A stretch of DNA of 64,000 nucleotides. Source: an uncultured bacterium. GTDB lineage: Bacteria; Patescibacteriota; Patescibacteriia; Patescibacteriales; UBA12465. Of the stretch, positions 29,660 through 32,600 are shown one piece after another (the first letter of the stretch is position 1; the number at the start of each line of letters is the position of its first letter). The notes below the pieces were generated by a model. That model had not been told where the DNA came from. It worked only from the letters and a program-made list of their open reading frames with translations, and did no database searches. The position numbers and the translations under genes are program-made. The stretch is from assembly GCA_942492765.1 (NCBI GenBank), contig OW818634.1:6627-70626 (forward strand), given 5' to 3'.

Positions 29660-32600
29660 ATGTTTGTAAAAAAACGTATTTCCTCTGTTAAAAAACTAGC
29701 AATTTTATTGTTGGTTTTTTTGTTTTTGGGGCAGAATGTGACTTTAGTGTTGGCCGCTGAAGGTGTCGAGGCCGGAAGTGTGCCCGCGTCCGAAACACCG
29801 GCTAGTGATAATATCACTCCGATGCCCGCGTCCGATATCCATGCTGGCGCTGTTGATGCCACAAGTAAATTGGTGGCAGATGAGGCCGCTATAATTGATT
29901 CTATAAGTACGGAAAAGACAGACAGCACTGTTGATGCTACGCCTACTGTTGATTCTGATAAAAAAGCCTCTTCTGCCAAGAGTTCTGATAACTTGATGAG
30001 TACCATGAGCTCTGGTACCGAGCCTGGAGAAACTTCTCCTGATGAAACTAAAAAAACCGCGGATGCTAAATTGCGCGTGGAAACTGATTCCGTAACTGGC
30101 GGTTTTATTTACACTTATCCCGTAACTGTTCCGCCCGGAAGAAATGGCCTCCAGCCAGATTTAAAACTTATATATAATAATCAACAAGAAGAGAACAACG
30201 CCAATGCCTTCGGTTATGGTTGGTCAGTAAATATTCCTTACATTGAAAGAATAAATAGAAAAGGTGTAGAAACCTTATTTACTCAATCTTTTTTTAATTC
30301 CAGTTTGACCGGCGAGTTAATAAGAGTCGGCACCTCAACCTCCTATGGCTCCAAAGTAGATAATGGAGAATTTTTAAAATATCAGCTGATCGATAATTCT
30401 TATTGGCAAGTAACGGATAAAAAGGGTTTTCAATATATATTCGGTTCATCGATTGATGCTAGACAAGACAATCCGGCCAGTTCAACGCAGATATTCAAAT
30501 GGATGCTTGAAAAAGTAATAGATCCTAATAATAACTATGTTTCATATAGTTATTATAAGGATAACGGGCAAATTTATCCTGATACTATAAAATATACCGG
30601 TTATAATACAACTGACGGTATATTTGAAGTTGATTTTTCTAGGGAATCCAGAAATGACGCCGCTACTTCAACTAATACTGGTTTTTTTGTTAAAACAGCT
30701 TATCGCATTAATCAGATTCAAGCTAAAATAAATGGCACCTGGGTTAATCAATATCAACTAGGTTATCAAAATGGCGATAATGGAGTAAGATCGCTATTGT
30801 ATTCAATCACAGGAAGCGGACGCGATGAACGGGGTAATACTACTAGTTTACCAGCCGATAGTTTTAATTATCAGACAAAAACAAAGAACTGGAGCCAAAA
30901 TACCAATATAAGCATCCCCGTTTCTTTTTTGGATGCCAATGGTTATGATAATGGTGTTCGCTTGGCGGACGTTAATGGCGACGGATTAATGGATATTATC
31001 CAATCCCGCTTAAACAATTTTCCATATTCTGCCTCAAGCGCAGTCTATCTTAATAATGGAGATGGAACTGGCTGGCAGCAGGACACTAACTGGGTTCTTC
31101 CGTCCGTGTATTTTGCGAGTGTTTATGTTAATGATACTGGCGTACGTGTCGCTGATGTTAATGGTGATGGTTTGGCTGATATCCTTGGACCTTCCGGTGT
31201 TTATATCAATAATGGAACTGGCTGGCAGCAGGATACCAATATAAGTATCCCTGTTTCTTTTTTAGATAGTAATAGCTATGATAATGGCGTTCGTTTAGTA
31301 GACGTTAATGGCGATGGATTAGTAGATATTATTCATGCCCGCCTGAATAATTTTCCATATCCAGCTTCGAGCGCAGTCTATCTTAATAATGGAGATGGAA
31401 CTGGCTGGCAGCAGGACACTAATTGGGTTCTTCCGTCCGTGTATTTTGCGAGTGTTTACACTATTGATACTGGCGTACGTGTCGCTGATGTTAATGGTGA
31501 TGGTTTGGCTGACATCTTCGGCCCCTCGGGCGCAGTATATATTAATAAGGGCGACGGAACTGGTTGGCGACAGGATGCTAGTATGACCCTTCCCACTTCA
31601 TTTTTAGATGCTAATGGGCGTGACACCGGCGTGCGCGTAACTGATGTGAATGGTGATGGATTGGCGGATATCCTTGAGGCTCGCATAAATAATTTTCCAT
31701 ACTCAGCTTCAAGCGTAGTTTATATTAACAAAGGAGACGGAACGGGTTGGCAGCAAGATGCCAATTGGAGCCTTCCTCCTGTTTATTTTGCTAGCGTTTA
31801 TGTTAATGATACTGGCGTACGTATTAATGATATTAATGGAGATAATCTGGTAGATATTTTTGGTCCCTCGGGTTCAGTTTATCTAGCTAATCCTAAAAAA
31901 GCGGACTCCTTGTCAATAATAAATAATAATAAAGGTGCCAAGGTTTCTGTGGTATATAAAAATACTCCTGAATATTTAAGCGCTACCAGCACTTTATTAA
32001 ATCCAAAATTGCCGATAAATCTGCAGACTGCCTATCAGATCGGCGTCGATGACGGGCAGGGGAACGTGGCGACCTCGACTTATTCGTATGTTGGTGGCGA
32101 ATATTATTACAATAACGCCTATGATAAAAAATTTGCTGGTTTCAATAATACAACGAAAACAGATTCCACCGGAAATGTTACGAAAAATTATTATCATCAA
32201 GGAAGCGCTAATAGTACTACTACGGGGGAATACGCTGATCATATTTCTAAATCCGGTAAGGCCTATCGGACGGAAAATTATGATAATGCTAGCAACCTAT
32301 ATTCCAAGACTATTAATAAATGGGATCGGTCTGATCTAGGCGATGGACGAAATTTTGTTAAGTTAGTTCAGTCCATTGACTCTACATACGACGGTGATTC
32401 AACACATAAGGACAAGGCGAAAACTTTTGCTCATGATAACGCTAACGGCAATAAGACTCAGGAAACTAATTGGGGTGAGGTAGCCGGAAGCGACGACGGC
32501 ACGTTCTCAGATACCGGAGCCGACCTGGCTTCAACCACGATAACTTATGCGGCCAGCACTACTCCTTATATTGTAGGCCTGCCCTCGCAAGAAACGACCT

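Follow-up and report, generated by a model that had tools for sequence, protein, structure and literature searches.

A tandem repeat that probably encodes an old, six-bladed FG-GAP propeller in a TcB-TcC-like Rhs toxin gene of an uncultured Patescibacteria genome

Introduction

How should a tandem repeat of three units of about 330 nucleotides, lying within a long coding sequence, be read: as an array free to gain and lose copies, as a product of assembly, or as the ordinary coding sequence of a repetitive protein fold? The question is raised by a locus of an uncultured bacterium (GTDB lineage Patescibacteriota, Patescibacteriales, UBA12465; assembly GCA_942492765.1), of which 64,000 nucleotides of contig OW818634.1 (positions 6,627 to 70,626 of the forward strand) were analysed; this stretch is called the window, and coordinates refer to it unless stated otherwise. 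The repeat belongs to the gene of a 2,490-residue secreted Rhs polymorphic toxin of the TcdB/TcaC class, which resembles fused TcB and TcC subunits. A first-pass annotation, made from the sequence alone, had described the units as near-identical, the region as potentially variable in length, and the array as a hazard for assembly.

The analysis makes it highly probable that the array codes for a six-bladed FG-GAP/VCBS propeller, with an old (AB)3 arrangement, a copy number constrained by the fold, and a single patch of gene conversion. The DNA repeat would then be the footprint of the internal symmetry of the propeller; with six blades required by the fold, the array would be kept at three units. 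As such the array is an ordinary feature, of low interest beyond its correct annotation; there is no reason to mark it as misassembled or as variable in copy number, since such a repeat is what a six-bladed propeller is expected to leave in the DNA. It does offer a clean case of a propeller made of three copies of a two-blade unit, old by its synonymous sites and yet bearing an apparently fresh conversion tract of 143 nucleotides; concerted evolution and purifying selection would here act jointly on a repeat that the fold keeps at a set number of copies.

Anatomy of the Repeat Array

Tandem Repeats Finder delineated an array with a period of 333 nucleotides at 30900–31843 (2.8 copies, 79% matches, score 979); the first two copies taken alone (30900–31516, 1.9 copies) gave 88% matches and a score of 1010. 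An ungapped repeat search returned three copies of 300 nucleotides, starting at 30889, 31222, and 31564, with identities of 100, 87, and 72%. The array is in frame within the open reading frame (ORF) of the host gene (Table 1). With unit boundaries placed on codons, the units U1, U2, and U3 measure 333, 342, and 342 nucleotides, and every unit codes for two FG-GAP blades, a blade A of 61 residues and a blade B of 50–53 residues, the latter without the nine-residue loop of the A blades. Repeat searches and codon placement thus bear out the first-pass annotation in its description of three tandem units with two FG-GAP-like blades each. The small ORF that it had listed twice, at 31056 and 31389, as a symptom of the repeat is likewise present in both places, 333 nucleotides apart; the ORF list holds no counterpart of the pair in U3.

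The likeness of the units had been drawn too strongly. In a codon alignment U1 and U2 are 85% identical at the nucleotide level, which is well short of near-identity, while U1/U3 and U2/U3 reach 71% and 70%; the corresponding protein identities are 85–87% for U1/U2 and 68% and 67% for the other two pairs. The identical runs of over 100 bp that had been reported between U1 and U2 do not occur: the longest exact runs in the codon alignment are 53, 48, and 35 nucleotides, and no k-mer of at least 55 nucleotides is found twice in 30800–32000. The figure of about 75% given for the third unit comes close, the actual value being slightly lower (70–71% in the codon alignment or 72% ungapped).

At the protein level, neighbouring blades share 46–54% of their residues and blades of the same type 66–85%. 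The array contains six DxNGDG motifs, at residues 437, 499, 548, 610, 662, and 724, and the cation-binding motif Dx[DN]xDG is found in all blades, reading DVNGDG in blades 1–5 and DINGDN in blade 6. The columns of the motif Asp and Asn residues are invariant in an alignment of 37 sequences.

Domain Architecture and Fold of the Host Protein

Pfam families matched in the host protein are SpvB (PF03534, 55 bits with a cut-off of 22), FG-GAP_3 (PF13517, 77 bits), TcdB_toxin_midN, RHS_repeat (PF05593, 67.6 bits with a cut-off of 22), and CBM_4_9; from NCBIfam, Rhs_assc_core and YD_repeat_2x were found, and TIGR01643 matched as well. The N-terminal domain was matched by Foldseek to the N-domain of SpvB (6p0x) and to TcB chains, and the first segment of the RHS shell matched the Rhs proteins 8h8a and 7q97 over residues 1198–1418 in a sequence search of the PDB. 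The chain begins with a predicted Sec signal peptide, in which a basic N-region, a hydrophobic core, and a VLA-A site were recognized by eye. Toward the other end, the Rhs core closes with ...NPLKYVDPTGK, as read from the translation, a sequence that includes the DPxG motif and lies upstream of the toxin tip; this core is a predicted autoproteolytic plug.

An AlphaFold2 model of residues 140–900, built on the alignment of 37 sequences, was confident, with a predicted local distance difference test score (pLDDT) of 87.9 and a predicted template-modelling score (pTM) of 0.87. DSSP assigned 24 β-strands over the repeat of this model, in six groups of four, four per blade, and a hidden Markov model (HMM) of the blade gave six matches in the propeller of the host protein. 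Foldseek superposed the model on TcdB2-TccC3, TcdB1, and YenB with E values of 1e-38 to 1e-30 and TMq values of 0.66–0.76, where TMq is the TM-score normalised to the query. As modelled, the propeller is six-bladed and located between the N-domain and the RHS shell.

Blade Number across the Family

The best homologues, for the most part from Patescibacteria bins, are 46–49% identical to the query over most of its length; identity rises to 57% in two short partial fragments. The homologue sample included no protein longer than 1,310 residues, nor the query's own protein, although the collection contains it, and apparent 'partial' homologues as well as negatives for the C-terminal tips of long proteins have to be read with caution. 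A tally of C-termini in such partial homologues (36 of 73 inside the propeller), considered as a sign of contig breaks within it, was set aside as unusable owing to this bias of the sample. Blades were counted in the 56 homologues that span SpvB to midN, with the span defined as the distance between conserved flanking anchors. This span amounts to 319–392 residues in 54 of the 56. The blade HMM recognized exactly six blades in 44, and lower counts mostly stem from divergent blades in spans of normal length. Longer spans are explained by a domain inserted between blades in one protein (P0089) and by extra sequence between blades in another (P0120, 445 residues). A further homologue, P0110, has seven highly similar blades with an exact period of 55 residues (residues 334–742); its single-sequence structure model was uninformative (pLDDT 35). 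The genomic homologues L001 and L002 have six blades each. Across the family, six is thus the fixed number of blades, with a single exception.

The host gene is an outlier in the likeness of its units, compared with the 25–50% protein identity typical of homologues, and its two-blade periodicity is unique: blade identity is 0.76 at lag 2 and 0.48 at lag 1, compared with about 0.41 for both in the homologues. Repeats of other periods are found in relatives. In L001, a metagenome-assembled genome of Niastella, the propeller gene contains a repeat at 7037–7917 of that sequence with a period of 390 nucleotides (two blades; 2.3 copies, 82%), and in L009 the gene encoding P0010 contains a repeat at 4213–4689 with a period of 171 nucleotides (one blade; 2.8 copies, 81%); the propellers of both are six-bladed. 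Re-amplification or homogenisation recurs in this propeller family, almost always ending at six blades, and the independent repeats in six-bladed relatives fit the continual re-amplification published for VCBS propellers (PMC9218822). Blades show no positional orthology across proteins, the best match falling at the same position in 15–22% of cases as compared with 17% by chance. The same protein was found on no other contig; scans of genome and metagenome contigs gave only relatives at 36–42% identity.

Age of the Units and the 143-Nucleotide Tract

The age of the arrangement can be read from synonymous divergence (dS) and from the ratio of nonsynonymous to synonymous divergence (omega), both estimated by the method of Nei and Gojobori. 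U1 and U2 differ by a dS of 1.23, with an omega of 0.09, over the first 49 codons, which lie outside the tract described below; either of them compared with U3 gives a dS of 1.2–2.3 and an omega of about 0.1. Housekeeping genes of the source genome and its nearest relatives differ by a dS of 0.47–1.10. Since synonymous sites between the units are saturated, the (AB)3 arrangement is at least as old as the split from these nearest relatives, and purifying selection has preserved the protein similarity of the units. The saturated flanks speak against frequent unequal crossing-over, by which entire units would be homogenised.

One stretch departs from this pattern. Over 143 nucleotides, covering the last strand of A1 and most of B1 in U1 and the equivalent part of U2, the two units show only 5 mismatches (96.5% identity), compared with 77.5% identity in the flanks. 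Among third codon positions, 2 of 47 differ inside the tract and 24 of 54 in the remainder (Fisher p 5e-7; permutation p 3e-4), and dS is 0.064 inside as compared with 1.23 outside. The corresponding region of U3 is separated from U1 and U2 by a dS of about 1.2. Judged from this contrast, recent short-tract gene conversion between U1 and U2 is the simplest explanation. RNA folding z-scores of -0.6, -1.7, and -1.3 were not significant.

Alternative Readings

RecA-mediated exchange usually needs roughly 20–30 bp, a length that the exact U1/U2 runs exceed, and the period of 333 nucleotides is in frame; it is thus conceivable that unequal recombination adds or removes two-blade units without disturbing the reading frame, changing the size of the propeller or the functionality of the toxin from cell to cell or strain to strain in the manner of a contingency-like array. 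The relative with seven highly similar blades and the published variation in blade number among close relatives of other VCBS propellers (PMC9218822) point in the same direction. Such length variation is nevertheless improbable: the anchor span is the same in nearly all homologues, exactly six blades are counted in 44 of them, the solved TcB structures have six blades, the canonical number, and synonymous saturation outside one short tract is incompatible with frequent whole-unit exchange. The earlier description of the region as potentially length-variable finds little support. In a bolder version, which we regard as a long shot, the (AB)3 propeller in TcA-less, Sec-secreted Patescibacteria toxins would be a module tunable by recombination rather than a fixed gate. 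If this were true, in-frame unequal exchange over 333 nucleotides, together with short-tract conversion between units, would give four-, six-, or eight-bladed or mosaic variants within a population that switch the toxin on or off or retarget it, and both the seven-blade relative and the other-period repeats of relatives would be traces of recombination. An artefact of assembly or polishing, with a true copy number different from three units or with the tract made by cross-mapped reads during consensus polishing, has to be considered for a metagenome-type assembly in which a tract of 143 nucleotides comes close to the length of short reads. However, with no exact repeat of 55 nucleotides or more, the units can be told apart by typical k-mers and by reads of 100–150 nucleotides; the frame stays open through all 2,490 codons, the number of copies agrees with the six blades expected from structure, the array lies within a contig of 895,742 bp, and the five differences inside the tract oppose simple copying. 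The chance of an artefact is accordingly small, and the warning of an assembly hazard, with no sign of collapse or expansion, was overstated.

The tract itself could have arisen otherwise, if U1 and U2 were a recent whole-unit duplicate with fast divergence of the 5' part, or if selection acted on the tract at the nucleotide level. The two alternative-frame ORFs overlap the tract, and diversifying selection could act on the blade A part. Yet the 5' flank differs mainly at synonymous sites, which reflects time and not positive selection, and selection at the nucleotide level is opposed by U3, which lacks an alternative-frame ORF and shows a dS of about 1.2 in the tract region, and by the RNA folding results; an origin of the tract other than by conversion is thus hardly to be expected. 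Diversity-generating retroelements are common in Patescibacteria, and a surface-exposed protein in which two similar copies differ by scattered mismatches is reminiscent of a template/variable-repeat pair. Both copies, however, are in-frame parts of one structural domain, and this candidate, of negligible probability, was ruled out by the absence of an adenine bias, 33 of 41 mismatches being transitions distributed over all four bases.

Certain observations weigh against the preferred reading, a six-bladed propeller with an old (AB)3 arrangement and one conversion patch. The seven-blade homologue demonstrates that six is not absolute in the family. In the model, closure of the propeller ring is presumed. 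Conversion is deduced from a single sequence, and a polishing or consensus artefact could mimic it. Finally, without a TcA gene nearby, the part of the TcB analogy that concerns docking to TcA may be inapplicable.

Comparison with Known Systems and Proposed Mode of Action

The propeller of TcB is six-bladed, closes the RHS cocoon, and acts as a gate (PMC6868009). The TcB subunits TcdB2 and TcdB1 of Photorhabdus and YenB of Yersinia entomophaga share with the host protein the order of SpvB-like N-domain, six-bladed propeller, TcdB-midN, and RHS shell, at a sequence identity of only 16–19%. In contrast to these subunits, the host protein fuses a TcC-like half in one polypeptide and contains a 490-residue CBM_4_9/Ig-like insertion (Ig, immunoglobulin); it has an N-terminal signal peptide and no TcA partner within 64 kb, the (AB)3 symmetry of its propeller sequence is unusually regular, and it is encoded by a Patescibacteria genome and not by an insect pathogen. 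No TcA-sized gene is present in the window, in which no ORF other than the host ORF exceeds 850 residues, and none lies beside the homologues in L001 and L002.

Zhang, Aravind et al. (2012, PMC3482391) described the TcdB/TcaC class of polymorphic toxins, which carry, from the N-terminus onward, a signal peptide, SpvB, and an integrin-like propeller; RHS repeats come next, and the C-terminal tip varies. The host toxin has the same architecture, together with a small downstream ORF, an orphan Rhs fragment, and a tip that is exchanged between scaffolds. The phylum is absent from the 2012 list, whereas current databases hold many members from Patescibacteria; the tip and the putative immunity protein of the present locus belong to no described family. 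With respect to propellers, Pereira and Lupas (2022, PMC9218822) described repetitive VCBS propellers, whose median blade number is six, and their continual re-amplification. The host propeller has this median number, its blades are far more alike than those of its relatives, and its amplified unit consists of two blades and not one. The very high mutual identity of consecutive blades that marks the recently amplified propellers of that study (PMC9218822) is lacking here, the host units being saturated and only the 143-nucleotide tract young.

Among the fold matches, teneurins and the mosquito protein SGS1 (8fjp) also appear, in which a propeller and a YD/RHS shell work without a TcA translocator. 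They are eukaryotic descendants of bacterial YD-shell toxins, and the teneurin propeller is of a different type. Their similarity to the host protein is far weaker (TMq 0.1–0.3), and they are not toxins.

Based on these analogies, the following mode of action may be proposed. The toxin would be exported by Sec, and its RHS repeats would form a cocoon around the C-terminal tip, as suggested by TcB/TcC and the Rhs literature. Autoproteolysis at the Rhs core, presumably aspartyl, would free the tip inside the cocoon, and the six-bladed propeller, located between the SpvB-like domain and the RHS shell, would plug the bottom of the cocoon as a gate. The inserted CBM_4_9 and Ig-like domains would probably bind target glycans.

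The CBM_4_9/Ig-like insertion separates the TcB-like from the TcC-like half of the RHS shell and is missing from the matched TcB-TcC structures. CBM_4_9 was found by Pfam in two stretches (E 2.3e-26), the first at 34433–34798, and a sequence search of the PDB matched the insertion to the carbohydrate-binding module structures 1gui and 4mgq; the Ig-like domain (35321–35602; Ig_Rha78A_N, E 1.2e-3) remained under the Pfam cut-off. The insertion may be an externally displayed glycan-binding module. Taken as a whole, the gene bears on how Patescibacteria episymbionts interact with hosts or competitors: its product is a TcA-less fusion toxin of the TcB-TcC type with inserted CBM domains, and the ultra-small genome carries it as a strain-specific gene.

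Toxin Tip, Island, and Neighbouring Genes

The features of the locus are compiled in Table 1.

Table 1. Features of the toxin locus (window coordinates; aa, amino acids; nt, nucleotides).
Feature	Position	Strand	Basis or remark
Strain-specific island, ~8.1 kb, between PSP1 and gap	29589-37736	.	Absent in five syntenic relatives
Host gene, 2,490-aa secreted TcB-TcC-like (TcdB/TcaC-class) Rhs polymorphic toxin	29660-37132	+	ORF, Pfam, NCBIfam, fold match
Predicted Sec signal peptide, aa 1-32, MFVKKRISSVKKLAILLLVFLFLGQNVTLVLA	29660-29755	+	Translation judged by eye
SpvB/TcaC-type N-terminal domain, ~aa 140-410	30077-30889	+	Pfam SpvB E 9.5e-15; Foldseek
Repeat unit U1	30890-31222	+	aa 411-521; blade A1 30890-31072, blade B1 31073-31222
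Recently homogenised tract, U1 copy	31037-31179	+	dS contrast
Alternative-frame ORF, 62 aa	31056-31244	+	+2 frame relative to host ORF; repeat by-product
Repeat unit U2	31223-31564	+	aa 522-635; blade A2 31223-31405, blade B2 31406-31564
Recently homogenised tract, U2 copy	31370-31512	+	dS contrast
Alternative-frame ORF, 65 aa	31389-31586	+	Exactly 333 nt after its 62-aa twin; repeat by-product
Repeat unit U3	31565-31906	+	aa 636-749; blade A3 31565-31747, blade B3 31748-31906
TcdB_toxin_midN domain, aa 711-848	31790-32203	+	PF12256, E 4.6e-16, 59 bits (cut-off 24.8)
First RHS/YD-repeat shell segment, ~aa 850-1500	32207-34159	+	Pfam RHS_repeat, DUF6443; PDB sequence matches
Insertion between shell halves, ~490 aa: two CBM_4_9 and an Ig-like domain	34160-35629	+	Pfam, PDB matches
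RHS repeat-associated core domain, aa 2208-2308	36281-36583	+	TIGR03696, 59.2 bits (cut-off 32.5)
C-terminal toxin tip, ~180 aa, rare family	36584-37129	+	C-terminal to Rhs core
Candidate immunity gene, 139 aa, N-terminal transmembrane helix	37137-37556	+	Directly 3' of toxin gene
Orphan Rhs-repeat fragment, non-coding relic, 106 nt	37585-37689	+	82% identical to 35927-36032 in toxin gene

The toxin tip has no Pfam match, and only 14 relatives were found at E values of 1e-3 or below among 1.84 billion cluster representatives. Some of these form the C-terminus of an RHS/PKD protein (P0149) or of subtilase proteins (P0147, P0153), and others that of short proteins; occurrence at the C-termini of differing scaffolds is as expected for a polymorphic-toxin cassette. 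The tip represents a very rare family without assignment, which is of modest interest. The 139-residue ORF downstream has no significant Pfam match either; by its position it is a candidate for the immunity gene, and tip and ORF could constitute an undescribed toxin/immunity pair. The orphan Rhs relic 3' of this candidate is of a kind typical of recombination scars at rhs loci.

Toxin gene, 139-residue ORF, and orphan Rhs fragment make up the content of the island. In all five syntenic relatives (L004–L008, 82–88% nucleotide identity), PSP1 is directly followed by gap, with a spacer of about 80–100 nucleotides that includes a terminator hairpin. The island starts right after the stop codon of PSP1, in place of this hairpin, and its guanine-plus-cytosine (GC) content of 0.38–0.46 is to be compared with 0.48–0.50 in the surroundings; no target-site duplication was seen at its junctions.

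Other parts of the window differ from the relatives as well. A second strain-specific segment of 4.85 kb (45323–50170, GC about 0.43), where the relatives L005–L007 have some 700 nucleotides with one ORF of 182 residues, codes for a radical S-adenosylmethionine protein, a DegT/DnrJ/EryC1 aminotransferase, and four ORFs without family assignment. At 22409–24047, a gene for a fused orotidine monophosphate (OMP) decarboxylase-phosphoribosyltransferase (22522–23982, GC 0.41) is absent at this position in L005–L007, and L004 has three other genes there instead, including a stand-alone OMPdecase. Finally, a 504-residue transglutaminase-like (DUF553) gene contains a direct repeat of 147 nucleotides (25522–25668 and 25705–25851, 75% identity, spacing 183 nucleotides), which also shows as cross-matches to the relatives L004–L007.

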